A DNA stretch of 20,000 nt from Jimgerdemannia flammicorona (GCA_003990765.1 RBNJ01000012.1:44850-64849); one strand, 5' to 3'; counted from the first letter of the stretch, positions 1 to 20,000 are shown. Numbers and translations are program-made. Notes: generated by a model not told the origin, from the sequence alone.

Positions 1-960
1 TGAGCTGTATCTACTTGTTCTTTAGACTTTCTAATATTTAGAGTATAAACATACTGGATACTGTTTGGAGAAATCTTATTCATAAATATTATTAGACCTA
101 TGATGCCTTAGTTAGTGGTATTGAACCTAGCTACAGATATTCTTTTTAGGATTATTATAAAGAATGCTCTGGGTTATTTTTTGAAATTCATCTTCATTTC
201 CATGATAAATTCTTAGACCTTATGGTAGGTTTCATTTCCTGTATATTTCTCAATAAGTTAGTGGATTATGGCTTCATATTCTACTTCCCAGGAGGATGCT
301 ATATGAATGGCTGTTCTAAGATCTGAATGTACATTATTTGCTACTTAGTTAAAAATCCCCTTAGCTGGTTCTCTGAGTTGGATCTTGTAGATAGTAATAT
401 TTTACTATGCAGAGAGATTCTTTAGAGCTATAATTTCTTCAATTCTATTAAAGTATTCTCTTGAGTCTTCTTTAGAGTATTTTGCAAAGATTTGCATTGA
501 GGTGGTTATTTTGTCATCACTGTTTTCTAGTTCTAATTCTGATTCTGATTCTAGTTCTGAATCACTTTTGAAGTTATTGCTAGAGCTTAGAATACTTGAG
601 TATTTTAAAGATAGTATTATTAATCTTGGACAAGGTACAGTAGGTCTGGGAATTCTTAAAGAGGGTATTTCTAGTCCTTCTGATTCTGTGGTTGCTAGTC
701 ATGATAGTGGTTTGAAGGAAGAAACTTAGAGCTTTTGTGGAAAACCAGGATTGTATAATAAGGTCTTCTAATTTTTATATAAGCTTATTGAAGTTTCTGA
801 TAGAGCTGTCTGTATTGTCTGATTGATCTGGTGGTAGGTCTGTTAGTACTGGTTGAGATTCTTCTAATACTGGGTAATTGGTAAGTCTTGAGGTAATTAT
901 TTCTCTTTTTGTTTAAATGCTGATGATGACTTGTTCTCCTATGGTAGCAGAGATTAGTAT
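1..960 (-). pseudogene. gag: Degenerate gag (N-terminal part) of older Gypsy element A, continuing off the left edge
   Basis: Colinear with the gag of element B (~9230-10170), e.g. 121 ttgaacctagc vs 9310 ttgaacctagc, and the Ser/Asp/Glu-rich block; many C>T/G>A changes and stops. Confidence 0.85.
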
Positions 961-1032
961 TGTATCAAATATATCCAGTTTGGCTGTTGGGTTCTTGTGA
1001 GCTGAAAAGTCATATAGATTTAAAGAAATCTA

Positions 1033-1048
1033 TTCAGTTGAGCTTTTA
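1033..1048 (-). promoter_or_regulatory. Decayed primer-binding site of element A
   Basis: ttcagttgagctttta aligns with the B PBS cccagttgagccccca (10238-10253) through C>T changes, 2 nt from the LTR start. Confidence 0.7.
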
Positions 1049-1050
1049 AA

Positions 1051-1184
1051 TATAACATACTAGCTCAATGAAAGTAAATTACAAGATCAGGATTACTATG
1101 TGGTTTAGCTTAAGCCCTTAGTTTTTTTGTCAAAAAGCAACAAAATGTTCAATAGTTTCTGGTATCCTTATTGGTGTTTAGTAG
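1051..1184 (-). repeat. U5-end fragment of the element A 5' LTR, split by insertion of B
   Basis: Diverged copy of the first ~134 bp of the B LTR (tataacatactagctcaatg vs tgtaatgtgcctggctcaatg); homology resumes at 11706. Confidence 0.85.
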
Positions 1185-2385
1185 TGTAATGTGCCTGGCT
1201 CAATGGAGGCAAATTACAAGGTTGGGGGTTGATGTAGTTTGGCTTGAGCCCTCAGTTACTTTGTTAAAAAGCAATAAAATGTTCTAAGATTCCTGAGGTC
1301 CTTGGTATTTAGTGGTATAATAGTCAAGATCTGGATATCTGTGAGTGGTTTCCTTATTGGGATGGTTCTCTGAGTGTAGTGGCAATTTGTGTCTTTCCTT
1401 CTTGGGTCAACTGGGAATGGTAGAATTTGTGTGTAGTATGAGCAGTTTCCTTCTTGAGTAGTGGGTGATTTCTGTATAGCATGACAATCTTATACATGAT
1501 GGTCTGGCAATTTAGCAGTTCTCCTTATGTGATTTCTGTATGATGATCTCTGTGTAGCATGGGCTTCCTTATACAGGACATTCTGATAATTTGGCAGATA
1601 ACTCAATTTGGCTTACTGGGAATAGTATGGCATAGATTCTTTGAATTGAGCTCACTAGGAACAAACTGATAACTCAGATGTTGCAGGTTTTCTGGGAATG
1701 CAGATGACGTGTAAATGGCAGATAACATGGATTCTCCTGAATTGGTAGACTTCTTGAAAAAAAGGTAGCTTCAACTGGGAGTAACTTGGATAGCATAAGT
1801 TCTTCCAGATCGGGCTCTTCTGGGAATGTGAACAACTGGTGGCATTCTTCAGGAAAGAGTTTCTTGGCAAAGTTATGTCAAAGACTGGCTTCATTTGCAT
1901 GGGGTTACATCATAGACTGGCTCCACTGCGAAGTTGCATCAGAAAGACTGGCTTGTGGCAAGAAAGGCAGGTTCTCTGAGAATGCAGTGAATAACTTGAA
2001 AATGATAGATGACACGGATTCTTCCTGAATCAGTGAAGTTCTTGAAAATGGTGGCTTATTCCTTAAGCAGCAGATTACTCAAAAGGCAGCAAAGTTCTTC
2101 TTTGAACTTGGCAGAAAATCGGCTTTGTATCGAAAAGTGGACCAGAGTGGAAAGGAGACCAATGCTCAATCTTTAGAGGCTTCTTTGGTGTTTGTATTTC
2201 AGACTCATTCTTTATATCAGAAAGTGGACTGGAGTGGGGAAATAAGCTCACAATCTCCTAGCAGTGGCTGTAGAGTTCCTCTTGAAGTGTAGCAGGCAGA
2301 CTTGTCTTTTGCTTCAATTTCAGACTCATTCTTTGTATTGAAAAGTGAACTGGAGTTGAAATGTATTCTGAATTTCAGACTGAGG

Positions 2386-2417
2386 TTTATTCACTCTTGT
2401 CTCTGGGGTAATTTATA
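2386..2417 (-). promoter_or_regulatory. LTR TATA box (TATAAAT) and polyadenylation signal (AATAAA)
   Basis: atttata at 2411-2417 and tttatt at 2386-2391; the same arrangement occurs in the other LTRs of the window. Confidence 0.65.
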
Positions 2418-2480
2418 CATTGTGGTTGCTATCTGGTTGCTATCTGACTAACTATAGAGTGCTATTTATGGGGTGATATT

Positions 2481-2558
2481 CACTGTCAGAGTGACAGCTA
2501 CTGTCAGGGTGACAGCCACTGTCAGGGTGACAGCTACTGTCAGGGTGACAACCACTGT
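2481..2558. repeat. 18-bp palindromic tandem repeat in U3 (4.3 copies, CACTGTCAGGGTGACAGC)
   Basis: Units start at 2481, 2499, 2517 and 2535, with a partial unit at 2553. Confidence 0.95.
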
Positions 2559-2692
2559 TCACATTATTTCCTTCTTTGGCTATCTGGTTATTTATACATC
2601 TTCTGCAGCAATGGTTGCTGATTACTATGCTGTACTAATGTTCACATCACCTGATCAGGTTTCAAGATTGCTACATCTTGTAGTTTGTCACA

Positions 2693-2707
2693 TCAGCCGC
2701 CACTAAA
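2693..2707 (-). promoter_or_regulatory. Atypical polypurine tract of B (TTTAGTGGCGGCTGA)
   Basis: Immediately upstream of the 3' LTR; homologous position in D at ~17013-17027; only partly purine-rich. Confidence 0.5.
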
Positions 2708-2731
2708 GGGTAGTCTGTCTCAGACTATTCT

Positions 2732-3238
2732 TTAGTCATCATTCCAATAAGCATAGGCATCTTCTGCATCTATACCTGTTCCATCATCTTTATTGTCTGT
2801 ACTGGGGTCACTCCATTCTAGCTCTGGATCTTCCTCTTGTTCTTCAAGAAACAGGATGTCTACTTGTTGAAGGATACTCTGAAAGGTGGTCTCATTCATC
2901 TGATAGATGTCATTGAGGTGGAAGTGAGACTGCACCAGGGCTCCAATGTTTCATTTATACAGGGTGTAGATTCATTTGGCAGTTCTTACTTCTCTGAGAG
3001 TAATTCTGGCTGGGCTTCTTATATAAGGTTGTTCTGTCAATAACTGCCCAATGTTGTAGAAGGCTTATAGATAGTGGATCCGAAGCAACCTTTGGGAAAT
3101 GGCAAGGTTCTCTTGATGCTTCTGGATCAATTGTATGGAGGTTCCTTCAAGTTGACGAAACTGGGGCAGGGGAATTGGCAGGGCTTAGAAGAAGCTGAGA
3201 ATGAGGGTCTGGAGGCATTGATCTATCCTCTGAGTCAT
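2732..3238 (-). pseudogene. Accessory ORF3 of B (~168 aa, unknown function, acidic C-terminus), 4 premature stops
   Basis: Single frame MTQRIDQCLQTLILSFF*ALP...L*AFYNIGQLL...RTAK*IYTLYK*NIGALVQSHF...YWNDD; all stops revert by T>C; homologous to ORFs in C, D and E. Confidence 0.8.
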
Positions 3239-4299
3239 GGTTTGTGCAGGTATATCTTGAGGTGATTGATGTGGACTGGTGTTCTCAGGGTTCGTCCATC
3301 CATGCTTCTTAAATAGATTCTGGTTCCTCTGATGTTGTGTACAAGATAAGGTCCTTCCCATTTTAGTTCCAGTTTGGTGGCAAAGTTTATTTCTATCATA
3401 CTTCTCCAAACTAGTACTTGGTCTCCAATCTTGATCTCCTGATCTTTCTGTTTCTAGTTATAATACTTCTTTTGTCTTTCTTGGGCTTTGATAATCTGAC
3501 CTCAGGCTTGATTTCATAACTATTCTGCCTTTTTGAGGAGGTCTCTGAGGTTCTCATGGTCAGCAGTTCTAGTTTTCTTAGCAAACATCATTTCGAATGG
3601 CTTTTATTTGGTGGAGGCAGCAGGGGTGTTCTGAATTTCCCATAGAATTTCAGGTAAGCAGAGGTCCCAATTGGTAGGATTGACTCAGGCAAGTCCTCTC
3701 TTGATGGTCTGGTTCATCCTTTCTGTCATACCATTGGTCTGAGGGTAGTATTATGTAGTCTGTTTGAGGTGGATCTTGTGAATTTGGGCATAACTTGTGA
3801 TTATGTTGTTGATGAATTCTGTACCTCGGTCAGAGATGAGTTCTTCTGAGGGTCCATATCTGAGTGTGAGTCCATGGAGGAGGCCTACAATGGTTAAGGC
3901 ATCTGTGATTTCCATTGGAAAAGCCTCAGGCCACTTGGTCAGATGTTCTACAAATACAAGGATATATTTGCGTCTTCTTGGTGTAACTGGTAGAGGTCCA
4001 ATTATGTCTACTCTCCATCTCTGAAAGATGTTGTTTGGTGGTATGATTGGTTGCAGTGGTGCTTGATAGTTCTTTTTTCCTTGGTATTTCTGGCAGGTGT
4101 CACATTTCTTGAGTGTGTCCCAGACTTGTGTTCTGAGGTTGGACCAATGTTGGTATGTTGTTCGCAGCTTCTCTTCTATATTCACCTGTCCCTAATGGGC
4201 TTTCTGATGTTCTTTTCGGATGAGATATTCTTGTGCCTTGATGGTCTGAGGAGCTTCCTTTAGGGTATAGTTCCTCAGGACACCCTTCTTCTGGTTCAT
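3235..4299 (-). pseudogene. Integrase of B (HHCC, DDE core, GPY/F module; no chromodomain)
   Basis: EHQKAH...CDTC, VDIIGPLP, SDRGTEF, YYPQTNGMTERMNQTIK, KWEGPY; internal stops. Confidence 0.93.
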
Positions 4300-5711
4300 T
4301 GGGGCTGGCGGGAAAGTACATCAATATTGTTGTGGGCTTTTCCTGCTTTGTGAATAATTGTGATTTTGTAATCCTGAAGGATAAGGATCCAGTGGGCTAG
4401 GATTCCAGTAGATTTCTTGTAGTTGAATAGCCATTTGAGGGCTGCATGGTCTGTGATCAGGGTGATCCTTTTTCCAATGAGGTAATGCTTGAACAGGGTG
4501 ACTGTCCATATGACTGCAAGACATTCCAGTTTAGTGCTATCATAGTTCATCTGCTGCTGATTAGTACCTCTGCTTACATAAGCTATCACATAGTGCTGTT
4601 GGTCAGGTCTTTCTTGAGCTAGAACTGCTTCTAGGCCATCTTTGGAAGCATCTGTATATAAGATGAATGGCTTCTGTAGATTGGGGCACATAAGGATTGG
4701 TGCTGTAGTCATGTGGTTCTTGAGTTCTCTGAAGACTTTTTCCTGTGGTTCTGTCCATTTGAATGGCATTCCTTTCTTGAGAAGGATTCGGATTGGGGCA
4801 GCAATTTGGACAAAATCCTTGATGAACCTTCTGTAGTAAGATACCAGTATCAGGAATGATAGTGTTTCTTTCAGAGTCTTGGGTACTGGCCAATTGTAGA
4901 TCTTCTCAGTTTTCTTTGGGTCTGCATGAGTTCCTTCTTTTGAAACCATGAATCCCAGGAATTCAAGTTTCTGTTTTCCAAAATAGTATTTCTTTGCATT
5001 CAATCTCAAGTGATTCCTGTGGGTGAGCTTGAAGAATTCCTCTAGGTGGTGCAGGTGTTCTTTGAAATTTGCTAAATAGATATTGGAATTGTCCATATAT
5101 ATAATTAGGCAGTGGTGGATCAAGGGGGCATAGACTGAATTCATCATTCTCTGAAAGGTGGGGGGTGTATTGCAGAGTCCAAAGGGCATTTGGAGATATT
5201 CAAACAGTTTTCCTAGAGTAAGGAAGGCTGTCTTTTGAATGTCCTTGGGGTCCATGGGGATCTCATGGAATCCTGCAAAGAGGTCCATGCTGCTGAAGTA
5301 TCTGGCATCCTGTAACTGATCCAAAAGGTCATCAATTCTGGGCAAAGAATAAGCATTCTTCTCAGTGACTGAGTTGAGTTTCCTGTAATCCACACAGAGT
5401 CTCCATCCTCCTTTCTTTGGTACAATAAGTATAGAGCTGGCCCAGGGGCTAGTAGAGGGTCAGATGACTCCATTGTCTAAGAGTTCTTGAATGTACTCTT
5501 TTTCGAATGTTTTTAAGTAATGGGGTATTCTATAGGATTTCTGCTAGATGGGTGTTGCACTTTCTGTATTTATGCTGTGGTGATATGATGGATTGTATGG
5601 TAGATTGCCATAATCGGTGGTGAAGATATCTTGATATTTGTTGAGAAGTTCTACTAGTTGTTGCTGTTGTTGAGGTCTCAATTCTTCTCCAATGTTGGTG
5701 GAAGGTTTCAC
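4296..5711 (-). pseudogene. pol: Reverse transcriptase - RNase H of B
   Basis: SPWASS, WRLCVDYRKLN, LPRIDDLL, MPFGLCNTP, YMDN (decayed YxDD), LYTDAS, ITDHAAL, DVLSR. Confidence 0.96.
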
Positions 5712-5799
5712 TGTCTCCTGGGTCGCAGAGGGGCCTTTCCTTTCTTCTGGGACCTTTTGCCATTTCCCAATAGGTTTAGTTCATAAACTTCCCTATGAG

Positions 5800-6061
5800 T
5801 TCAGTTGAGAAAAGGCACCAGATGTCCTATGATGGTTCCTTTTGACAGGATGATGGTCTCCCAACTTTGGTTGGTTGCTCAGGAGTGTACTGGGTTCATC
5901 TTGTCAGGGAATGTGTGTCCCTCTATGTCCAGGTATGGGATATCTTCCTTAGGTTCAAAGAAAAGGTTTCTGGGGTCGGGTGGTGCAAAGATTTCGAAGG
6001 TAGTTTGTTCTCCAGGCTCCAGGATGAGATTCTTGTGCAGTCTGACTGGTTGCCAGTACAC
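5800..6061 (-). pseudogene. Possible degenerate dUTPase-like beta domain before RT
   Basis: LILEPGEQTTFEI and ATNQSWETIILSKGTIIGHL echo dUTPase scaffold segments but lack catalytic motifs; judged by eye. Confidence 0.4.
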
Positions 6062-6118
6062 TTGCTGGGGAATATTCCTCTTAAGGTAATTGACTTGAAG
6101 GAGATGTACCTCCTTCCT

Positions 6119-6520
6119 GTCTGAACTTCCAAATCCCTTGGCTTGTCTTGTTCCTTCAGTTAGTTCAGAGACTTCCTGTAACTGTGGAGTCTTGACCTTT
6201 ATGAAGACTGCTTGGGCAATCTTCTGTCCTCTAATGATTCAGTGCTATTCTGCACTGCTGTTGTATAAGATAACCTTGATTTTGCCTATATATCCTGAGT
6301 CAATAGTTCCTCTTTCCACTATTATTCCTTGTCTGGCAAGTCCAGACCTTGAGGTCAGTTGGATATAAATTCCTTGGGGTGACTGTATGGCTAGTCCAGT
6401 TTGGACCATGAAGGTTTTCCCAGGCTTGATAGATTCATCCTCCAGGCTGTGAAGATCATATCCTACATCCTTGAGGTGGACTTTGGTCGGGGGTTTGGCC
6501 TTGGAGTGCAGCAGAGCATA
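6119..6520 (-). pseudogene. dut: Trimeric-type dUTPase domain within the pol region of B
   Basis: All five motifs in order: VGYDL, SRSGLA, GTIDSGYIG, KIAQ, RQAKGFGSS; two premature stops. Confidence 0.92.
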
Positions 6521-6529
6521 CAGGGCAAT

Positions 6530-7843
6530 ATTCTTACTAAGTTCGGGCTCTCCTAAGGCTGAAGCTCCACTAGCAGAAAGCCTCCAAGCTCTAAGGTTGA
6601 GGTGTGGCCATCTGGCTCCAGTAGAGGGGTCTTGAAGGTAGTTAATTCCCCTTCTTCCTATAGGGTCAAGGGCTTCCATGAAGTTGGTGGCATCTTCTGC
6701 CCATTCTTGGTGGGTTGAATGTCTGATAAGAGCTGGGATGTCTTCTCCCAAATCGTAGATCTTGAGGATTCTTTTTCCGGGCTTCTTGGTCGGGCTTTTT
6801 CGAATCTGGCTTTTTTGGATCTGGTTTCGGTTATCTCCTTTCTTCAAAGTATGCACTGCAACATCATAACTGAGGTGAATCTTCTGGTGTCTGCAGTCTC
6901 GGCAGTCAGGGTGTCTTCCATGGTTACAATATCCCATTGCTCAGAAATGGTATTCCTGGCTGTTGATCTCTTGTTGTCTTGGAAATCAGTACCCATCTTG
7001 GTCATAGGTGGGTGGAAGAGTAGACAAGGGATATATTTCTATCTGGGTGAAGAAGCCTTATTCTCTAAATTGACTTTGTAACCTTGTGGTAACTTCTTGA
7101 AAAGTGGTTGACTGTACAAGTGTAGTTGGAGGTTCTGGTCTCTGGGGTCTCTGTCTTTCTTGTTGGTCCAACAGATGACATTGATAGCAGTAGTCTTAAG
7201 GAGAGTGGAAGATCATTTGGTGTGGACATCTTCTTAGCTAAAAAGCTTTCTCTTGGTGAGTTTCTTTCTTGGGAATAATGGTGATTGTACTGGGTCCTTC
7301 TTCTGTATTCCAAGGGTCATTGTCTTCAGGTGGTGTTCAATGAGGATCATCCCAAGGAATGAGTTCAGGGACTTCTTCTTCTTCTCCATATGCTTCTTGT
7401 TCAGAGACTTCTTGATCAGAAGTTTCTTCTTTCTTAGATGATTCTTGACCCCAAATTGCTTGTACTTCTGCAGCTTTGGTTGCAGGTGTTTCTGGAATAT
7501 GTCTATATTTCTTCTTCTTCCTTCTGCATTCTGGGCAGGCTGTACCAGGCAATTTCCTTATTCCCATAATCTTGGAGGAGTGCTCAGGACATTTGTGTCT
7601 CTTGAGGCAGGTAGAGCATCCTTTGGCTTTTCCTGTAATAGCTCCAATAGTGATAGAGATGGTGTTCTTGGCCCACACATTATCTTCTGGTCTGTTATCC
7701 ACCAGATTGATTCGGGGATTGAGTCTGGGATCAGTTCCATCTTCAGATTCTTCTTCTTCTTCTATAGTGGACTCTTCGCTACTGGCATATTCTTCCTGAA
7801 TAGTGATCTTTTTCTTCTTCTTTGATTGCTTATAGCTAGTCAC
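6530..7843 (-). pseudogene. Long linker between protease and dUTPase with acidic tracts and repeated Cys/His motifs
   Basis: In frame with the dUTPase; CSTCLKRHKCPEH..CPEC, CPH..CYQC, CNHGRHPDCRDC. Confidence 0.7.
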
Positions 7844-7849
7844 CTTAAC

Positions 7850-8200
7850 TCTGTACTTCTTGCCTCAGTAGTCAAACTTGAGTACTTGTTGGCCAATGTA
7901 AACAACTGCATTCATTTCCTTCATCCAGTGCCAAGAATCATATCATAGGTGACAGCTTTGGTGATAACAGCTTTGGAGATAGAGAACTGAATGTGTCTAA
8001 GGGAGATGGTGATATTTCATACTTCTCCAAGGGGTTGAGTTCGGGCTCTATCTGCTACTATGATGCTGAGATTGGATGGTCCATCAATGGGCCATTGGAG
8101 GGTGTCCAATAATCGTTTGGCAATGACACAGACAGCTGCTCTTGTGTCTTTGAGGATTTTCACTTTTTGTCCTCCAATATCTCCATGCAGGTAGGTGCTG
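7850..8200 (-). pseudogene. Retroviral-type aspartic protease of B
   Basis: VKILKDTRAAVCVI (decayed DTG), IIVADR flap, YDMILG followed by a small frameshifting deletion. Confidence 0.85.
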
Positions 8201-8699
8201 ACATGTCTTTTAGCTGCTTGAACAGGGATAGGAGCTGATTCTCGCTGTGGGATTGAAACTTGGCCAGTGCTAGACCTAGTGGTTCTCAGCAATTTGTTTT
8301 GGACCCCAGCTGGTATTAGTTGCAAGAACTACAGGAGAGGGACTTCCATCTTGGCTTCTTGAATCTTCTGCCAGACTTCATTGTAAATGTCTCTAGGCAT
8401 AGTCTTCAGAGTGTACTTCTTCTTAGGCTTTGGAGCAGCAGGTTCCTGTTCTTCTTATTCCATTTCTTCATCTTCTGGTGGCAGTTCATTTGTCTCGGGA
8501 AGGGGGTTCAGGGAGGTGTTTCAACTTGTTCCTCCTCATGTTCTTCATCCTCTTTTTGGATAATTCTTCTGCTGATGTTTCTGGATGGTCTTCCTACAGG
8601 TCTCTTTCTTTTCTCTGCTGGATAAACTGTTTTCTGGGTTGTAACCTTAGTGGGGTACAAGTTTAGGTCACTGTAGTCTTCACTATTGCTTGTTTCTTC

Positions 8700-10169
8700 G
8701 AAATCTTCAACAGGATGGGCTTCAGTCTTCTTGTACTGAGTGTCATTCCTTCAGTTTGCTGGTTCTGAGTCCCTTCAGTCACTTCTTTTGTTGTCACATT
8801 CAGTGGCATAGTGTCTGAATTGTTCACAGTGGAAGCATTGGACTTGGGCTCTGTCTCAGACAGAGTACCTTCTTTCTTCTTGCTGGTAATTCCTGTTATC
8901 TCTTGGTGAATATCCTTGGCTCCTCTGTGGTGGGTACCCTCTGTTGTTTTGGTAGTCCCAATTTTCACATGTAGTGAGTTTTTCAAACTGTCTAACCAAT
9001 CGGTCTAACTTGGAGCTGAGGTCTTGGATTTCACTTCTGTTCTTCTTTCCTTCCTTGACTGGCCTTCTTTCTTCTGATCTTTCTTGTCCTTGAAGGAGTC
9101 CTTGTAGGGCTTTGACCAGGATATCTTCTTTATCTTCCTTCTTATCATGATCACTCCAGGTAGTTCCTTGTCTGATATCAAAGAATTCTTGGGCTGCATC
9201 TACTTGCTCTTCAGACCTTCTGATGTCTAGGGTGCAGACATGCTGGGCAATATTTGGAGGAATTCCATTCATGAAGGTCATTGGACCTATGATGTCTTAG
9301 TTGGTGGCATTGAACCTAGCAGAATGCATTCTCTTCTGGATTCTTATAAAGAAGGCTCTGGGTGATTCTCCAAGATTCATCTTCATTCCCATGATGGATT
9401 CCTGGGCCTTGTAGTGAGTTTCATTTCCTGCATATTTTTCAATGAGCCAGTGGACCATGGCTTCATATTCTAGCTCATCAGATATTGCTGCTTGTATTTG
9501 TCTTGCTAGTTCGGAATCTTGGTTGTTTGCTGTTTGATGGAAAATTCCTCTGGCTGGTTCTCTGAGCTGAGCTTTATAGATGGTGATTTTTCTTTCATCT
9601 GAGAGATTTCTCAAGGCTGCAATTCCTTCAATTCCATCAAGGAATTCTCTGAGATCTTCCTCCAGGTATCCTGCAAATGTTGGCAATAAGGTAGCCATTT
9701 CATTGTCACTTTCTTCTAATTCTGGTTCAAGTTCGGATTCTGATTCTGATTCACTTTCTGAACTGTCACTAGAGATGGAGATGCTTGGGTATCCTGAGGA
9801 TGGTGTTCTGGATCTTGGACAAAGTGGAATAGGCCTAGGTATTCTTGTAGGAGCTACTTCTGGTTCTGCAAGGGGTTGTGGTAGGGGTTCAGTTGGTGAG
9901 ATTGGTGAGACTGGTGTAGGGTGTCTGGCTGTAAGGTATTGAGTCCATATAATAAGATCTTCTAGTTCTTGTGTGAGTTCTCCAAAATCTCTAGCAGGGC
10001 TGCCTGTATTGTCTGGTTAATCTGGTTGGGGATTTTGGGCAGTACTGCCTTCTGGTTCTGGTTGGGATCCTTCTGATGCTGGGTAATTGGTAAGTCTTGA
10101 AGTGATTACTTCTCTTCCTGTCCAGATGCTGGTGATAACTGGTTCTCCTGTAGTAGCAGAGATTGGTAT
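8700..10169 (-). pseudogene. gag: gag of B with CCHC zinc knuckle
   Basis: LPTFAGYLEEDLREFL, MKMNLGESPRAF, FMNGIPP; CFHCEQFRHYATEC at 8796-8837; Pro/Ser/Glu-rich N-terminus; start inferred from an in-frame ATA (decayed ATG) at 10169. Confidence 0.88.
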
Positions 10170-10235
10170 TATATCAAATGTATCCAGTTTGACTGTGGGT
10201 TCTTGTGAGCTGAAAAGTTACATCAATTTGAAATC

Positions 10236-10253
10236 TTCCCAGTTGAGCCCCCA
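10236..10253 (-). promoter_or_regulatory. Primer-binding site of B, tRNA-Pro-like (TGGGGGCTCAACTGGGAA)
   Basis: Starts with TGG 2 nt after the 5' LTR end; resembles the MLV tRNA-Pro PBS TGGGGGCTCGTCCGGGAT. Confidence 0.75.
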
Positions 10254-10255
10254 AA

Positions 10256-11701
10256 TGTAATGTGCCCAGCTCAATGGAGGTAAATTACAAGGTTGGGGGT
10301 TGATGTAGTTTGGCTTGAGCCCCCAGTTACTTTGTCAAAAAGTAACAAAATGTTCTAAGATTCCTGAGGTTCTTGGTGTTTAGTAATATAATAGTCAAGA
10401 TCTGAATATCTGCAAGTAGTTTCCTTATTGGGACGGTTCACTGGGTGTAGCAGTGATTCATGTCTTTCCTTCTTGGGTCAACTGGGAATGGCAGAATTTG
10501 TATATAGCATGAGCAGTTTCCTTCTTGAGTAGCGGGTGATTTCTGTATAGTGCGACAATCTCATGCATGATAGTCTGGCAATTTAGCAGTTCTCCTTATG
10601 TGGGATGTTCTGATAATTTGGTGGATAACTTGATTTGGCTCACTGGGAATATTATGGTGTGGATTCTTTGAATCGAGCTCACTGGGAACAAACTGATAAC
10701 TCAGATATTGCAGGTTTTCTGGGAATGTAGATGACTTGAAAACAGTGGATGATGCAGATTCTCCTGAATCGGCAGACTTCTTGAAAAAAAGGCAGCTTCA
10801 ACTGGGAGTAACTCAGATGGCATGAGTTCTTCCGGTTTGGACTCTTCTGGGAATGCAAACAACTGGCGGTGTTCTTTAGGAAAGAGTTTCTTGGCAAAGT
10901 TATATCAAAGACTGACTTCATTTGTATGGGGTTACATCATAGACTAGCTCCACTGTGAAGTTGTATCAGAAAGACTGGCTTGTGGTAAGAAAGGTAGGTT
11001 CTCTGAGAATGTGGTGAATAACTTGAAAATGATGGATAATGCAGATTCTTCCTGAATCAGCAAAGTTCTTGAAAACAGTGGCTTATTCCTTAAGTGGCAG
11101 ATTACTCAAAAGGCAGCGAAGTTCTTCCTTGAACTTGGTGGCAAATTGGCTTTATATCAGAAAGTAGACCAGAGTGGAAAGAGGACCAATGCTCAATCTT
11201 TAGAGGCTTCTTTGGTGTTTGTATTTCGGACTCATTTTTTGTATTGGAAAGTGGACCAGAGTGGGGAAATAAGCTCACAATCTCCTAGCAGTGGCTATAG
11301 AGTTCCTCTCAAAGTATGGTAGGCAGACTTGTCTTTTGCTTCAATTTTGGACTCATTCTTTGTATTGGAAAGTGAACTGGAGTTGAAATGTGTTCTGAAT
11401 TTCAGACTGAGGTTTATTCACTCTTGTCTCTGGGGTAATTTATACATTGTAGTTGCTATCTGGTTGCTACCTGACTAACTATAGAGTGCTATTTATAGAG
11501 TGACATTCACTATCAGGGTGACAGCCACTGTCAGAGTGACAGCCACTGTCAGGGTGACAGCCACTGTTCACATTATTTCCTTCTTTGGCTATCTGGTTAT
11601 TTATATATCTTTCACAGCAATGGTTACTGGTTACTATGCTGTACTAATGTTCATATCACCTGATCAGGTTTCAAGATTGCTACATCTTATGATTTGTCAC
11701 A
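10256..11701 (-). repeat. 5' LTR of element B (1446 bp)
   Basis: Direct repeat of 1185-2692, shorter by a 44-bp deletion and one 18-bp unit. Confidence 0.95.
11508..11567. repeat. 18-bp palindromic tandem repeat in U3 (3.3 copies)
   Basis: Units at 11508, 11526 and 11544, partial unit at 11562. Confidence 0.95.
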
Positions 11702-11705
11702 GTAG

Positions 11706-12771
11706 TATAATTGTTAAATCTAGATATCTATAAGTAATTCAGACAGATTTCGTAATTGAGACAGTTCTTTGATATATAGATAATTTATATATAGTATGAA
11801 TAGATTTTTTTATGTAATTTTATAGTAATTTCTATATAGCATGAGCTGGTTTCCTTATACAATTTCTATATAATGATCTCTGTATAGCATAACAATCTCA
11901 ATTTTTGTATGATGATATTGGTGATCTGAAATAATATGGCAAATTTGTCATTTTTCTTAGTAAGTGATAGGTTGATAATTAGTAGACTATTTGGAAAATA
12001 TGGATTTTTCAAAAATAGTAGATAACTTAATTAGTGAATAACTCAGATAACTCAGATAGTGTGGAATCTTCTAAATTAGCAGACTTCTTAAATAATAATT
12101 CAGATGATACAGATTCTTCTAAATTGGCAGGCTTCTTTTCTTAATAAAGTTATATCAAAGACTACTTTATTTGGACAAGATTATATTGAGAAACTGGCTT
12201 TACTATAAAGGTGTATCTTATATTAAACTGGCTTTGTGGTAAGATATAGACAGACTTATTAAATAGCAGCTCTTTCTTAAGTAGCAAAGTTCTTCACTTA
12301 AACTTTTGGTAGTAAATCTCAGACTTTATATTGAAAAGTAGACTGGAGTAGAAATAGAGCAAAGCTTGCAACTTCTCAGCAGTAGCTCATTGGTAGGTTT
12401 TTTCTCTAAAGTATATTAGATAATTGGCTTTTATTTTGATTTTGGACTGAGGTTTTATTTACTCTTATCTCTGAGATATTTATATAAGTTGATTGCTATA
12501 TAGTTACTATATATATAGCTAACTATAGGTTTGCTAATTAGGGGCAGATATTTACTATCCAGTAGATATTTACTATCTAGTAGATATTTATTGTCTGGCA
12601 GACATTTACTATCTAGTAGACATCTACTGTCTAGTAGATATTTACAATCTGGTAGATATTTACTATCTCTTTCTCTTTTTGACTATCTGGTTATTTATAT
12701 AATTTTCATAGTAATAAGATAACTATGGTATTTATATTATCTAGTTATACTATACTGTTTCATACTTCACA
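11706..12771 (-). repeat. Remainder of the element A 5' LTR
   Basis: Continues 1051-1184 after the GTAG duplication; diverged homolog of the B LTR; ends TTCACA, and this end resembles the D LTR start at 17028. Confidence 0.85.
12543..12668. repeat. 18-bp tandem repeat, 7 copies (ancestral-like unit GGCAGACATTTACTGTCT), in U3 of A
   Basis: Units at 12543, 12561, 12579, 12597, 12615, 12633 and 12651. Confidence 0.92.
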
Positions 12772-12970
12772 ATATCTATCTCTTACTTTAAATTGATAAT
12801 CTTTTGAACTAATTACAAAATATATACTAGATACTTTAATAGTATAGACCTTTTTGCAGAATTCTATAAGATATCTATAGACTCTAAGAATATTCAAAAG
12901 ACAGTCTTTCTCACTTTAAGAAACTATTTGAATATCTCTAAATACTCTTTAAACTCTATAATATACTGCT

Positions 12971-13322
12971 TAGTCCTCCTAAATAAATCAAATCAATTCA
13001 AATCAAATTGAATTGGAGATTTTTCAATTCAAATCAAGTTTAAATCAAATCAAATTCAAATCAAATCGAGGGTCTGATTTAAACCTTATTTTTAGAAATA
13101 TAATAACTTAACTAAAATACATCCAAATATAACAATCTTTAGCTTGTTAGATTTTTCTTATAAGGAGAAATCTAACAAGCTAAAGATCATTAAATTTGAA
13201 CATGTTTTTGTCAAGTTATTATATTTTCAAAAATAGAGTTTGAATTGAATCTCAAATCAAATTATACCTTTGATTTGATTTGAATTGAATTAAATTGGAC
13301 CTTTGATTCATTGAGAGTACTA
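12971..13322. mobile_element. Non-autonomous foldback MITE, probably hAT superfamily
   Basis: Interrupts the RT of D; imperfect TIRs TAGTcCTC..AATaAATCAAA / TTTGATTCATTGAGAGTACTA; 8-bp TSD-like atactgct/atactacc; subterminal AAATC/GATTT repeats; internal palindrome centred at 13160/13161. Confidence 0.8.
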
Positions 13323-13832
13323 ATACTACCAATATCTAGAGGATAATGAACTCAGTCTATGTTATATTGATTTACTACTATCTAATTATCTATATAGATG
13401 ATTTTAATATCTATCAGCAAATTTTGAGAAATACTTGTTAAATCTAAAAGAGTTTTTTTGACTTATCAGAAAGAACCACCTGAGACTCAATATCAAGAAA
13501 TACTATTTTGAAAATCTGAAACTCAAATTTCTCAGATTTATAATTTCTAAAAAAGGAACTTATATAGACTTAAAAAAAAAACAAAAGAGATCAACAACTG
13601 GCCAATATTTAAGATCTCTAAGAAACTACTATTTTTTTTAATACTAATATTTTACCATAGAGGATTTATTAGAAATTTTTCCAAAACCTCTACACTGATC
13701 TGAATCCTACTTAAAAAAGAAGTACTATATAAATAAAAGAAATTATAAGAGTAAGTCTTTAAGAAACTTATATACTATATAACTATAGTACTAGTTCTTA
13801 TATAATCTAATTTTCAAAAGTCATTCATATAT

Positions 13833-15327
13833 TGTAATGGTGACCTCAGAATGATGACATCAGTACAGAAGACAGCCTTTCCTTATAAGTCACCAGATCA
13901 GAGCATGAGAAGATCATACAGTATATGAGATGAGTAATGATGACCAACTGTGAGTCATTGTAACCACAGTTCAGATATCTTGAGAAATATAAAAGAAGGC
14001 TCAAGGAATCACAGTAGCAGTAACCAATAAGACCCATCAATCCCAAAATAGCTCAAAGACTTACCACAAACAAAATGCCTGCTGCTTACCAAACCTCAAG
14101 GTCAAGGAACTACTGAGGCATCTCAGTTGAAGAAAGGATGTTCCAAGACATCAGAAGAGCCATGAGGACCTGCTCAAGAAGGACTCCTAGTGTCAACCTG
14201 GATACTACAGATCCTTATTATTATATTCTCTACTATCATAAAATAGAAACAAGAATCACCATTGCTACTGAATGCCTCCAAATGTGGTAGGAGTATGAAA
14301 TAGGAAATCTCCTCTACTGAGAGTTCCCACAGGCCAGCTCTCAAGAGCTACAAGATGTCACTCCCATAGATATATATGAGGCAAGGATGGCTAAGAAGAT
14401 CCATCAGATCTTCAGGCATGCACCATAGTCTATCCCCAACTTGGAGTATATTAGAGTCTCAGACTTCAGAGACCTGTCATCCCACTATATCAATGCACTA
14501 GAAATCAGGGTGGCTATAGAAGCCCAATCCACTATCACCCTCAATAGTGATGAAGTAGAAAACTTCTAGCATCTCATCTTTCAAGACAACTCAGATCAAT
14601 TCCTGTAAGGATTGATCTCAGTATTTCAAGGCCCAAGCATCCAGGTTAGATCTCCCCAAGACCTCATATTTGTTTCCTATTTTGTAGAAGAGAATCTCAT
14701 AGATTGGAGAGCCCCTGATTTCCCTGCCACTAAACATGATGATGTCATTGGTAATGACATCATTCCACATGACATACATGAGATATGCAACATATATGAA
14801 GTATGCAAAACATGAGACCTATGCAACAATAATGAATTCACAGACCTCATCTCCTTCGAAGACATTCTGACCTCTGATGATGAAGCCTCTATAGTCTTGA
14901 ACATTCTGCTCTAAGTCCCTTGGTTATACTGAATAATGCCAGCATTCTGAACCTGTACAACCATCAGTGCCAACTCTGGAACTTAGCAGTTTTTCCTATC
15001 CTGGCATTTTATTTTAGTTATTGAAATTTATATTTAGCTTTATATCTAAGCAACCATTGAATTATATTTTGTATAAATACCCCTCTTATTTCCTTTGAAA
15101 TAAAGTCAGTCCATTCAGTCCATTTAGTTCTGGTTCACTTATACACACTTCCTTGCAAGCAATCTAAGAGATAATAAGACAGTTTAAAGATAAGAAGTTT
15201 GAGAACTATAAGATCTTAGGAAGGCACTCAAATAAGAACTTGCTTATAATAAACTTGAGTTAGTCTAAGAGATACACCTTGAAGAGAATCTGGTGTATTT
15301 GAAGAACTCAGCAACCACTACATGACA
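13833..15327 (+). mobile_element. Solo-LTR-like element E (1495 bp) containing a decayed ORF
   Basis: TGTAAT...ATGACA ends; flanked by ATAT on both sides; interrupts the D RNase H FILYTD motif; TATAAAT at 15072 and AATAAA at 15099. Confidence 0.8.
14075..14914 (+). pseudogene. ORF3-family pseudogene (~279 aa) inside E
   Basis: One frame with no frameshift and 7 stops, all revertible by single transitions; motifs EYEIGNLL and MAKKIHQIFR. Confidence 0.75.
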
Positions 15328-16479
15328 ATATATAGATATCTTTAAGAATAGTCTCAGAGCTGTCCTAGCTCAAGAAGAACCTGACTGATAATACTATATG
15401 ATAACTTATCTAAACTGAGCTACTAATAAGTAGTAAGTCAATTATAGTAATACTAAATTAGAATATCTTATAGTTATATAGACAGTTATCTTATTTAAGT
15501 ACTATCTTATCAGAAAAATATTCACTCTAATAACTGGTCATACTAATTATAAATAGTTATTTCACTATTAGGACTTTATTGAATTTTTTGCTCACTGGAT
15601 CCTAATTCTGTAAGATTATAAAATTACTATTATTTATAATGCAAAAAAGGCTCACAACAATATTGATATATTTTTTTATATAACTTAATAAATCAGAAGA
15701 AAAATATACTCAGAAACTATACTCTAAAGAAAGTTCTTATAACTATTAAAGAGCAGGAAGATCTCATCTGATAAAAATATTATAAAGTCTATTAAGGACA
15801 GATAAGTATAAAAGAAAAGCTACAAAAAATATACCAATACTAATCTCATCTTAGAATATATATAAATTAGAAATATTCTTAAGAGATATAATATCTATTA
15901 GAAGTATTAGAGAAAAAGAGTTACCAAATAGTCTGAGGCTTTTTCAATAGAAATTACAGATAACTCAACTTCTCCATAACCTCACTCTTAGATATAAATC
16001 TTCCAAAAAACTTATTTAAGATTATAGTATAGAATTTATTAATAAGTTGATCATAACTTCTATATAATTTATAAGATCTATCTGAAAAGAACTATATTAT
16101 ACTATTTCCAAACCAATGATATAATAGAATGAATGATCCAAACCATTAAGAAAGAACTTACTTAAGTCAATCCTATCAACTGAAACCTCTTGAAATCTTA
16201 TAGAAAATATAGAATATTTCTATTATCTTTATTAAATAAAAATATTTTAAGATAATATTTGCTAAGAAAACTAGAACAACTGATTATAAGAATCTTAAAG
16301 AACTCTTAGAAAAGACTGAATAATTATAAAATAAAATCCAACCATAGATAATTAAGATATAGAAATAATGAAAGAAGTTCTATAACTAGAAATAAAAAAA
16401 TTATATAGAAAATCAAAATTAGAGATCAGAGGATCTCAGTATATATTAATTATCTCAAGTTATACTTACTACTCATACA

Positions 16480-16988
16480 ATAATTCAGAGGATTGATCAG
16501 TATCTCCAGACTCTTATTCTTAGCTCTCTTTAGACTTTATCAGTTTTCTTATTCTAGTTCTGTAAAACTAATAGAAGCTATCTTCAATAGATTTAAATAT
16601 ATTAAAAAAACCTTACTCTGATATAATAGCTACTGCAAATTTACTAGCTACAGGCTTATTATACTATTGGTGAACAACTATAATATCTCTCAGCTCTAGA
16701 ATAGATCTATATTAAGAACATCACTAGCCTGATAAGAAAAAATACCACTGCTGCAGACAGACTCTATATAATTTATAAATAAAATATCATAGTACTAATG
16801 CTGATCTAGTTCTCTTTAAATAATATATAAAGAATAAACCTAGCTATCTACCAGAGTATCATTAGCTATATTGAAGTCTAATTTCTAGAAGAAGAAGAAC
16901 TTTTAGAATTAAGTAATCTAGATTAAAAGAAGATAATCATATAGATAATTATATAGAAGATATCTATAGATATTAAAATGATAACTAA
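16480..16988 (+). pseudogene. Decayed ORF3 of D
   Basis: ataattcagaggattgatcag matches B atgactcagaggatagatcaa; LQAYYTIGEQL...TAADRLYIIYK. Confidence 0.75.
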
Positions 16989-17057
16989 AGAATAGTTTAG
17001 GATAGACTATCCTTTAGTAAGGACTGATATGACAAACAAACACTATAGTATAGCTAG

Positions 17058-17533
17058 TGTAACGTAGCGGACACTTACTCTTGAAAGTATGTCGGATTTC
17101 TGTATTTTGAAAACTTGACCGTTCTGACTCTCGCAGAGTCTCTTGAAGTTGCAGGGAAGGGTGGGTGAGTTCAAAGTGTATCTGCCCGCAGGCTTACTAG
17201 TTCCTTTGCTATCTCTTTGCTTTGAACTATTTCGATCTGAGGTTTATTCACTCGAAGATACTGGGTTATTTATACAAGTTTGCTAGCTATGAGAGGGTGG
17301 CTAAGTAATAAATGAGTTATTTGGACTTTGTTGAAACATTTGGACAATGTCTAAATGCTATACTAAATCGGGGTATTCGATTTGGATAATGTCTAAAATT
17401 TAGACAATGTCTAAGAAATTAGACAATATTGAAATCGAGGACTGCTAACTATAATGCTATACTACTTTGGGAATGGGTGTGATCAAGTGTCTGTTCCCTA
17501 TTTCCTTCTTCCAAATCCGGCTGTACCATCACA
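17058..17533 (-). repeat. 3' LTR of C (476 bp)
   Basis: TGTAAC...ATCACA ends, adjacent PPT, TATA at 17268-17274, AATAAA at 17243-17248; partner LTR lies outside the window. Confidence 0.8.
17339..17433. repeat. Palindromic TTAGACAATGTCTAA-type repeats in U3 of C (about 4 copies)
   Basis: Copies near 17339, 17381, 17399 and 17418. Confidence 0.8.
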
Positions 17534-17546
17534 ACTTCCTCCTGAA
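17534..17546 (-). promoter_or_regulatory. Polypurine tract of C (TTCAGGAGGAAGT)
   Basis: Purine run directly upstream of the LTR TG on the - strand. Confidence 0.75.
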
Positions 17547-17570
17547 TGGATGGTCTTGTCCCTGAGGCAT

Positions 17571-18032
17571 CTATTCAAACTCCCAGGCTTCAACGGTCTG
17601 TATGGTCTTGTACTGTGCGATTTGCTGCATAACTATTTCCCAATGATGTCTTCTCACTTTCTCGAAGTTGGTGGAGGTTACTCCTCTCAGGTGGTCTATC
17701 GCTGCTTCATCTTCTCAGAATAACTTGTGGATCCTTTTGGCAACAGTGATCTGTGAGTAGGAGAGTTGACACTCAGCAATCCAGTCCTCCTTGGTCTTTG
17801 CTGGATCCTGATTGAGCACCTGTCCAAGCTTGAAGTACTCTTGGAATTCTGCCCGATATTGATAGGCTCTAAAGTGTGAGATCCTTGAAAGATGAGTCTG
17901 CACAATACTCTGAATATTCTCATAGAATGGCTCTATGGTCGGAGGCTCGGTGGTGTGCCATTGTCTTTCGATGGCTCTTTGAGCAGCACTAGTGATCTTG
18001 AGTGTCATCGTGGTACTTTTGTTACTGGCCAT
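17571..18032 (-). pseudogene. Accessory ORF3 of C (~153 aa, one internal TGA, probably from CGA)
   Basis: The 105-aa ORF continues in frame: ...QEYFKLGQVL...VAKRIHKLF*EDEAAIDHLRGVTSTNFEKV...WEFE. Confidence 0.82.
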
Positions 18033-19215
18033 GATATTTCTTGAGTCAGTTTCGGTGAATGGTGGTGGGGATTATTGTGCCTAAGGGTTTTCGTAGCCAA
18101 AAGGTAGTCCCTTTTATATCTTGCACAAGGTAAGGTCCTTCCCACTTGGGCTCTAGTTTTCGTGACCATGAAGCTTCAACCATATTCTGATACACCAGGA
18201 CTTTGTCTCCTATCTTGATGATCTCCAAGGGTTTGTGGGTCTTTTCTGCATTCCTCCATTGTAGTGTCTGCGCCTTCGTTATGTAATCCTCAGCCTTCTT
18301 CCTGATTTGGTGTAGTCTCCGTATTTCCATGTCCACATGTTTCCATACAGTATCTCCATTAGATGACAAGGTTCCCTGAGAACATTCTTCTCTGAACAGT
18401 ATTTCTCGAGGGGTAAAGTGGGTGCTTTGTGATCGGATATCCCGGAGAGCAGATAATGCTATTGGCAGATAGTGATCCCAGTTCTCGTAGTTATCGCAGA
18501 TCTTAGCAATAACATTCTTGAGGGTCTTGTTGGTCCTTTCTACTTGTCCATTTCCTTGAGGGTGATAGGCTGTGGTCCGAATGTGCTGGATCTTGTACTT
18601 CTTGTAGAGAACTTCAAAGAACTGGTTCACGAATTCGGTTCCTCTATCTGTAGTTACTTGTGTTGGGGTCTTGAACCAGCAGATGATTTCCTTGTGAAAG
18701 AAATCGGCGATTGACTGTGCATTAGCTTCCATAAGGGGTCCTGCTTCTATCCACTTTGTAAAAAGGTCTACGATGACAATGATGTATCGGTTGCCAGTCA
18801 AAGTCAATGGTAGGGGGCCGATTACATCCATTGCAATGTGGGCGAATGGTACTGGTTCTATGTGTGCTGATCCTGAGGCTTGATTTCGTTGGTCTTGTTT
18901 CTGTTTCTGGTATTTGTCACAGGTCTTGACGAATTGTCTGATATCTTCCTCCATCCCTGGCCACCATATTGTTCTTCTTGCCTTGTCGTATGTATTTGTT
19001 CCTCCTAGATGGCCAAGTTCGTGTACTGATTTCATTGCTTGCTCCTTCTTGTGTTCTGGTATGACTAGTAGTTTTTCTTTCTTCAGTGTTTCTCCGTCAG
19101 TTTCGAATTGTTTCCATGTTCTGTTTATAATCATTTGTGTCCATTCTTCCAGATGTTGGGGCATCTTTCGCTGTCCCAGGTATGTGATAATTCCGTAGTA
19201 GAGCTCCTTATTCAT
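18022..19215 (-). CDS. Integrase of C, nearly intact (premature TGA at 18046, 8 codons before the likely natural stop)
   Basis: HELGH...CDKY (C>Y), MDVIGPLP, TDRGTEF, YHPQGNGQVERTNKTLK, KWEGPY. Confidence 0.93.
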
Positions 19216-20000
19216 GATTGATTTGTTGGTTGGAGGCAGTTTGAGGTGTCCATGAGAGAGCATCTGCATTGGAATTTGTTCTTCCAGGGCGGTGCACGAT
19301 GGTTACATCATAGGCTTATAACTTCATTATCCATCTGGCATAGATTCCCTTGGGTTGTCCAGTTGTCAGTAGCCAGGTGAGAGCTGAGTAGTCTGTCTGG
19401 ATGGTGAAGTGTCTTCCGGCCAGATAGTAGTGGAACTTTTCCACAGCCCAGATAACTGCAAGGCATTCCAACTTGTAGGACTCATATTCTTTTTCAGCTC
19501 CTCGGGTTCTGCAGCTAAGATATGCAATGACATACTCTTTTTTGTCTTCTTTTTGAGCCAGGACAGCTCCTAGTCCCTGTGCACTTGCATCCATCTGAAG
19601 GATAAATTCTTGGGTCCAATTGGGTTGTCTGAGGATGGGTGCCTGAGTTTGTCTGACCTTGAGTTTGTCAAATGCTTTTTGTTGTCTGCCAGTCCACTGG
19701 AACTTGGTATCCTTCTTGTTGAGTTCGTAGATTGGACCTGTGATATTGGAGAATCCTCTAATGAATCTGCAATAGTAGGAGGCAAGTCCCATGAAGGCTT
19801 GGGCTTCTGTGACAGTAGTGGGCCTTGGGTATGCTACTACCGCTTGTATCTTGAGGGGGTCCGTGTGCGTTCGTCTCAATTGATGATATGGCCAAGATAG
19901 GAGATCTCGATTTCTGCAAACTTGCACTTCTTGGGTTTGATATAAAGGCCATGTTGTCTTAGTCTCTCCATTATCTGCTGTATGTGCTGCAGATGTTCCT
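19208..20000 (-). pseudogene. pol: RT C-terminal part and RNase H of C
   Basis: FMGLASYY, LQMDASAQGLGAVL, LECLAVIWAV, QTDYSAL, NADALS; one internal stop and a frameshift. Confidence 0.93.

Follow-up and report, generated by a model that had tools for sequence, protein, structure and literature searches.

The window, by which we mean the whole 20,000-nucleotide stretch of Jimgerdemannia flammicorona DNA analysed here, is a nest of Ty3/gypsy-type retrotransposons, whose elements are named B, C, D, E and F (Table 1). Element E, the subject of this account, lies within F and contains a decayed accessory ORF, positioned between the left end of E and a TATA/AATAAA cassette near its right end. A metagenome contig described below (L002) supplies the sequence context that a lone copy such as E lacks, and is included in the table.

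Table 1 Features of the window, and of metagenome contig L002 (positions on that contig)
Feature	Position	Strand	Description
Element B	1–2692		Repeats the 5′ 2.5 kb of C at 70–86% identity; period ~9.0–9.2 kb
Element C	~2693–11701	minus	gag, protease, dUTPase, RT/RNase H, integrase
Decayed frame of C, possible ORF3 relative	2732–3184	minus	Three stops; after integrase, just upstream of LTR start at 2692
F, left part	12791–13832	plus	AT-rich decayed gypsy RT/RNase H region, interrupted by E; blastn to C 5337–4663, 67–74% identity
ATATAT flanks	13827–13832 and 15328–15333	.	Possible 4- or 6-bp target-site duplication, low-complexity
E, probable solo LTR from a D-related Ty3/gypsy lineage	13833–15327	plus	1,495 bp; precise insertion into F
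5′ LTR terminus TGTAATG	13833–13839	plus	Read directly
TATA-like TATAAAAG	13988–13995	plus	~80 bp upstream of ORF start; candidate internal promoter, inferred
E-type accessory ORF, decayed	14075–14914	plus	840 bp, 279 codons plus stop; 7 in-frame stops, no frameshift
TATA TATAAATA	15072–15079	plus	Aligns with LTR cassette of D, C and B
AATAAA	15099–15104	plus	Aligns with LTR cassette of D, C and B
3′ LTR terminus CATGACA	15321–15327	plus	Read directly
F, right part	15328–17037	plus	RNase H, integrase, 3′ internal region; blastn to C 4629–2683, four blocks
Element D	17031 to beyond 20000	minus	RNase H, integrase, ORF3, 3′ LTR
3′ LTR of D	17031–17533	minus	~503 bp, no ORF; starts TGTGATGG; has TATA/AATAAA cassette
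PPT of D, ATTCAGGAGGAAG	17535–17547	minus	Identical to the PPT preceding E-like LTRs elsewhere
ORF3 of D	17571–18032	minus	153 codons, interrupted by one in-frame stop; homologous to the N-terminal half of the E-type ORF (supported, moderate similarity)
Integrase of D	18046–19302	minus	73% identical to L002 integrase
L002	2,109 bp		Metagenome contig; intact integrase, spacer, PPT, terminus, leader and ORF start on one molecule
L002 integrase	47–1420		457 aa, intact
L002 spacer	1421–1722		~300 bp between integrase stop and PPT
L002 PPT	1723–1736		AGGAGGAAGA directly before TGTAATGG
L002 LTR terminus	from 1737		TGTAATGGTGACC
L002 E-type ORF start	1990		First 40 codons match the family HMM (31.9 bits, E 1e-11); contig ends inside ORF

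Setting of the nested elements

Element F aligns to C over 12791–13828 and 15358–17037, and is a plus-strand copy related to it. Compared with C (4150–5337), F carries a heavy load of transitions, with 33–67% of the C/G positions of C reading T/A in every dinucleotide context, and its GC content is lowered to ~25%, against ~40% for E and D, the elements inserted in it or adjoining it. This transition load and low GC, set beside the composition of E and D, suggest an episode of cytosine-to-thymine hypermutation in F (RIP-like or by deamination) that would predate the arrival of E. The 3′ LTR end of D abuts F tail-to-tail at 17031–17037, where the 3′ LTR of F itself would be expected to start; the insertion site of D seems to be only a few bases from the PPT/LTR junction of F, whose LTR would then fall beyond the window.

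Elements B (1–2692) and C (its 9190–11701 part) are arranged head to tail, with a repeat period of ~9.0–9.2 kb. The internal region of C is followed directly by the beginning of the B LTR (TGTGACAAA at 2692), and a single LTR therefore appears to be common to both, in the order LTR–internal–LTR–internal. Within the array, ~1.7 kb lies between the LTR start and gag, a stretch that contains internal repeats of 121–134 bp. A dUTPase domain (5879–6940, minus strand; Pfam PF00692, E 7e-17) lies between the protease and RT of C. The AT-rich region between C and F (11702–12790) holds decayed minus-strand pieces of C-type LTR and leader, 12137–12244 resembling 10887–10990 and 12670–12715 resembling 11576–11621. 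An 18-bp tandem repeat of ~9 units is found at 12525–12686, and inverted repeats at 13036–13303.

E as a discrete insertion and probable solo LTR

Element E sits in the RNase H region of F, the older, AT-rich gypsy copy. Homology between F and C breaks off at 13828 (C 4663) and is picked up again at 15358 (C 4629), and the 34 intervening bases of C correspond to the 4 + 30 bases of F that flank E, leaving F continuous and without loss. The two termini of E form an inverted repeat, complementary at six of seven positions. A preliminary description of this DNA had remarked on a flank compatible with a target-site duplication. ATATAT does stand on both sides, but it is of low complexity and the joined flanks are just one base longer than the homologous site in C, making a duplication compatible with the data while lending it no probative weight.

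The promoter/polyadenylation cassette of E is common to the LTRs of D, C and B (an alignment at motif level), and nucleotide similarity between E and the LTR of D is limited to this cassette and the termini. Searching E itself, we found no internal direct repeat and no PPT/LTR-start module on the sense strand, the only match with up to three mismatches lying on the opposite strand; tblastn of the E ORF against the window gave no second copy. The precise insertion, the TG…CA ends and the shared cassette bear out the earlier reading of E as a solo LTR. E probably represents a solo LTR from a Metaviridae-like Ty3/gypsy lineage, with a whole accessory gene inside the LTR, in U3 upstream of the TATA/AATAAA pair.

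The ORF falls between the LTR start at 13833 and the TATA at 15072, with the U3/R border placed by motifs. From these positions we infer that the downstream TATA is the genomic promoter, which would put the ORF in U3; the label U3 rests on where the motifs lie. Should the genomic RNA instead begin from the TATA-like motif before the ORF (13988), R would be very long and would take in the ORF, which would then be 5′-proximal and present at both RNA ends rather than part of U3. The conservation of that motif, which stands ~80 bp before the start codon in E and has a TATA-like counterpart in the leader of L002 (ATATAAAGGAAGG), speaks for such a start. Even so, it is very unlikely: the downstream cassette also occurs in the LTRs of D, C and B, which have no ORF, making it the likelier ancestral genomic promoter, and a 1.1-kb R with an active 5′ polyadenylation signal would need special suppression.

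The accessory ORF and its relatives

A decayed ORF of about 840 bp free of frameshifts had been reported in E, and this description is accurate for 14075–14914, where the seven stops interrupt a single frame that runs from a start codon to the same C-terminal end as in intact relatives. A search of 5.8 billion proteins identified four such relatives (174–271 aa, 60–74% identity; the full range for intact proteins of this size is 60–79%), and an exhaustive HMMER search of 1.84 billion representatives returned five proteins at E ≤0.001, one of them already among the four; the four added sequences (138–342 aa) are 29–58% identical to the E ORF. Gene callers report only open frames, and the intactness of these eight relatives is partly an effect of ascertainment. 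An HMM built from them scores the E ORF at 347 bits. Their start and C-terminal end coincide with those of the E ORF, every stop of which sits at a residue-bearing column. No fused (longer) form of the E-type protein was found, which is weak evidence, and protein-pattern scans of metagenome contigs and viral contigs yielded no relative. Related contigs differ from E mainly by transitions. A 25-nt near-palindrome (88% self-complementary) lies at 14739–14763, in the variable C-terminal part of the ORF.

The 271-aa form of the protein has a net charge of +8 in the first 60 residues and of about −23 in the last 120. Its acidic tail contains repeated [DE]L[IL]xF-type motifs and ends in LNFLL, and no hydrophobic membrane segment is evident in E-type sequences. 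AlphaFold2 models are helical in the N-terminal half shared with the 153-aa type encoded by D (pLDDT 67 and 47 for the 153-aa and 271-aa types, respectively). Pfam holds no family for the E ORF, the ORF3 of D or the eight relatives (ATG5_HBR appears below threshold in two of the eight), and a PDB sequence profile search gave no match. Further searches were similarly blank: the best ESM Atlas score, 0.83, is below lead level; Foldseek with the 271-aa AlphaFold2 model gave no match at E ≤0.001; and the best Z of 6.0 from a wide VIA-align search with the 153-aa model is inside the noise for helical models. With no family or fold matched, any functional reading is a guess. The combination of a basic N terminus, a helical domain and a long acidic tail might befit a protein with a regulatory or adaptor role more than an enzyme or an envelope protein, a suggestion we regard as doubtful.

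The same blank searches, and the seven stops of a copy that is dead, would fit a captured or spurious ORF that is carried passively in a long LTR and is not a functional gene of the element. That is very unlikely, given that open relatives of 138–342 aa retain block-wise conservation and a common start and end across 29–79% identity, and that the family has a profile match to the post-integrase ORF3 of the sister element D, which itself has intact relatives.

Homology to ORF3 of element D

The ORF3 of D begins 14 nt past the end of the integrase frame and ends 23 nt short of ATTCAGGAGGAAG, after which comes TGTGATGG; the gene is thus upstream of the PPT and outside the LTR. It has nine intact relatives at 60–80% identity (family P0009–P0017). 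Aligning the E-type and D-type families with hhalign gives a probability of 89.5% (E 2e-6) over 114 columns at ~21% identity, spanning residues 28–141 of the 153-aa type and 14–149 of the 271-aa type. The E-type HMM, run against the window in six frames, finds the ORF3 of D at 11.1 bits (E 6e-5), and pairwise BLASTP of the two ORFs is weak (E 0.002 over 34 aa). Homology between the E ORF and the ORF3 of D is supported by these profile comparisons, at a similarity that is moderate and not overwhelming. The alignment covers the N-terminal half, and the E type therefore has ~120 extra C-terminal residues, in agreement with the ORF3-family membership and C-terminal extension proposed previously. 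Together the E-type and D-type proteins form an uncharacterised family of at least 17 database members in two subtypes.

The same description had placed the gene upstream of the PPT in B, C and D. This is so for D; similarity of the ‘ORF3’ of C and B to the ORF3 families is only sub-threshold. The decayed frame of C that follows its integrase (2732–3184) is colinear with these families but scores below threshold (hhalign P 0.014 and 0.005, probability 3–7%).

Both subtypes occupy a post-integrase position. Set against the 14 nt in D, the E-type ORF starts 570 nt after the integrase stop of L002. The integrases of D and L002 are 73% identical, compared with ~21% in the profile alignment of the accessory proteins; either the accessory gene would have evolved far faster than pol, or it was exchanged.

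PPT and PBS-like sequence in related copies

Public data place E-like sequences between a PPT and a PBS-like sequence. Logan contigs from four public sequencing runs were mapped to 13500–15700 at 80% likeness; the runs belong to three studies and comprise three soil metagenomes plus one organism. Cover by related contigs is confined to 13796–15349 and near zero in the flanking F, with the exception of a gap at 14758–14905, the variable C-terminal part of the protein. At the left end, a PPT (…ATTCAGGAGGAAGA) precedes 13833 in E-like contigs of all four runs, at least 13 contigs in total (7, 1, 3 and 2). The continuation reads …(A/G)GAAGAT(C/T)CTTATTCAGGAGGAAGA, a polypurine tract identical to that of D. 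At the right end, CTTGGTGCCCATTGG… continues after 15327/15328 in three of the four runs, in at least five contigs (3, 1 and 1). A PBS-like …TTGGTGCCCATTGG follows E-like sequence, its TGG-first TGGTGCCCATTGG beginning 2–3 nt past the terminal CA. A PPT before TGTAAT and a PBS-like sequence after ATGACA, both anticipated in the preliminary description, are therefore present in other copies. The mapped contigs are short (~100–250 bp) and L002, described next, stops within the ORF; among them no molecule with a pair of ORF-bearing LTRs turned up, and continuity from PPT through ORF to PBS rests on the tiling of the short contigs and on E itself. The runs, like L002, come from other samples than the J. 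flammicorona genome, at ~77% identity to E.

Scanning JGI metagenome contigs with a DNA pattern of PPT plus terminus returned two loci. One, L001, is a bacterial glutamine synthetase contig with a chance match to the pattern and was rejected as a family member. The other, L002, joins an intact integrase, a PPT, an LTR terminus and the start of an E-type ORF on a single molecule (Table 1). Its post-PPT part is 77.5% identical to E over the first 355 aligned columns, and its integrase is 73% identical to that of D over 417 aa. The L002 spacer (1421–1722) matches neither ORF3 profile. The PPT pattern in genome contigs gave one chance hit, in a bacterial MAG without a family match, which was rejected; the PBS pattern had no match in genome contigs or viral contigs.

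The bases just before the L002 PPT resemble the integrase's own …AGACTCAAGAAG… ~380 bp upstream, a resemblance that may reflect an old short duplication. Reading the pre-PPT bases ACTCAAGAAG as RLKK codons of the integrase was dropped, since the L002 integrase ends 300 bp further upstream.

These contexts bear directly on whether E is an intact LTR. An internally deleted or chimeric element would consist of a 5′ LTR stub, ORF3, a PPT and a short 3′ LTR, and in intact copies the ORF would lie outside the LTR. Such an origin would suit the position of the homologous ORF3 of D outside its 503-bp LTR, and the restriction of the resemblance between E and that LTR to the termini and the cassette. 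It would call for a PPT/LTR-start module between the ORF and the TATA of E, where we find none, and E is likewise without an internal direct repeat. L002, whose integrase is intact, has the PPT/TGTAATGG junction upstream of the leader and ORF; the left end of E corresponds exactly to its post-PPT sequence, and the same junction recurs in the contigs of all four runs. A deleted or chimeric origin, which the preliminary description had put forward as the finding that would overturn its reading, is excluded as far as these data allow, and we consider it extremely unlikely.

Position of the LTR boundary and a proposed replication scheme

The PPT that precedes E-like sequence, together with the order of features in L002, places the LTR boundary upstream of the gene in the E lineage. 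In D, its sister lineage, the boundary falls after the gene. The same PPT/terminus module and a homologous gene thus stand on opposite sides of one another, which implies that module and gene changed sides in evolution. No remnant of the other arrangement is present in the L002 spacer or in the U3 of D, and either arrangement may be ancestral. Of the shift of LTR boundary relative to gene that had been proposed, the opposite placement in the two lineages stands.

A full-length element of the E lineage would run from integrase through ~300 bp to the PPT (AGGAGGAAGA) and then into the LTR. The LTR would comprise the TGTAATGG terminus, a 240-nt leader, the ~271-codon ORF, ~160 nt, the TATA, the AATAAA and ~220 nt of U5 ending in CA, with a PBS-like TGGTGCCC… after it. 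Plus-strand DNA synthesis is primed at the PPT in the established retroviral replication scheme. Both cDNA ends would receive a copy of the stretch from the PPT to the 3′ end of the RNA; since the gene follows the PPT, it would be found in each LTR and thus twice in every element. Recombination between the LTRs would leave a solo LTR that retains the gene. E would be such a remnant, inserted into an already decayed element and carrying seven stops that it has gained since.

The TATA and AATAAA lie ~20 nt apart, and transcripts starting ~30 nt past the TATA would have no poly(A) signal at their 5′ end and would have one at their 3′ end. On the genomic RNA, the gene would follow pol as it does in D, the PPT/terminus module alone having switched sides. 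Expression of the ORF could proceed from the TATA-like motif at 13988 with use of the LTR polyadenylation signal, or from a spliced subgenomic RNA.

Discussion

The closest precedent for this arrangement is retroviral. MMTV sag is a complete accessory ORF inside U3, and is hence present in both LTRs and in solo LTRs. The E-type ORF likewise lies entirely within U3, as delimited by motifs, and the analogy to sag drawn at the outset holds in architecture: there is no sequence relation, and no Pfam family is matched at E up to 1. The carrier also differs, being a Ty3/gypsy-type retrotransposon with dUTPase and not a betaretrovirus, and the protein has no evident membrane segment. In foamy viruses (bel2/bet) and lentiviruses (nef), a 3′ accessory gene contains the PPT or follows it, and part of the gene is duplicated in the LTR. 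Those genes only overlap U3, whereas here the entire ORF and its leader are downstream of the PPT. Nearer in descent is D with its ORF3 family, which shares with the E type the PPT/LTR-start module, the TATA/AATAAA cassette and (through L002) an integrase of 73% identity. It differs in a shorter accessory protein (153 aa) of ~21% identity, encoded upstream of the PPT and outside a 503-bp LTR.

Among retrotransposons, the bdelloid rotifer families Juno, Vesta and TelKA are dUTPase-bearing and gypsy-like; their LTRs have TG..CA ends, and additional ORFs that vary by lineage follow pol (PMC5408684). The dUTPase is located between protease and RT in these families and in gypsy-like elements of basidiomycetes, the only other source from which the paper reports it among retrotransposons (PMC5408684). 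The dUTPase of C has the same position. Rotifer LTRs measure 159–551 bp, and the ORF3s are described there as env-like, GDSL esterase or DEDDy exonuclease (PMC5408684). The text consulted contains no mention of an ORF within an LTR (PMC5408684). Narrow exact-phrase searches of the literature, by title and the start of the abstract, likewise found no ORF inside the LTR or U3 of an LTR retrotransposon, returning retroviral cases only (MMTV and foamy virus), which is weak evidence. For a Ty3/gypsy retrotransposon, an arrangement known from MMTV sag is confirmed here as regards sequence architecture.

Where an LTR begins and ends is determined by the PPT and by integrase-recognised termini, and such boundaries are usually treated as fixed. 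The E lineage, set against D, offers a natural example of a boundary shift by which a gene can be taken into the LTR or let out of it. Within the LTR, a gene is present at double dose per element and survives LTR–LTR recombination, with consequences for the spread of such genes, for the annotation of solo LTRs and for the behaviour of LTR finders that expect LTRs to be non-coding.

More tentatively, and as a possibility that we would not yet favour, the lineage may have moved its PPT/terminus module across the accessory gene, turning every LTR into a gene cassette with a TATA-like promoter, a 271-codon ORF and a polyadenylation signal. Solo LTRs would then be scattered, expressible copies of a regulator acting in trans, and the lineage would provide the first sag-like gene housed in the U3 of an LTR retrotransposon that is not a retrovirus. 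If this is true, a regulator housed in solo LTRs could serve or police the family after its coding elements are gone, and the sister lineage would preserve the other state.
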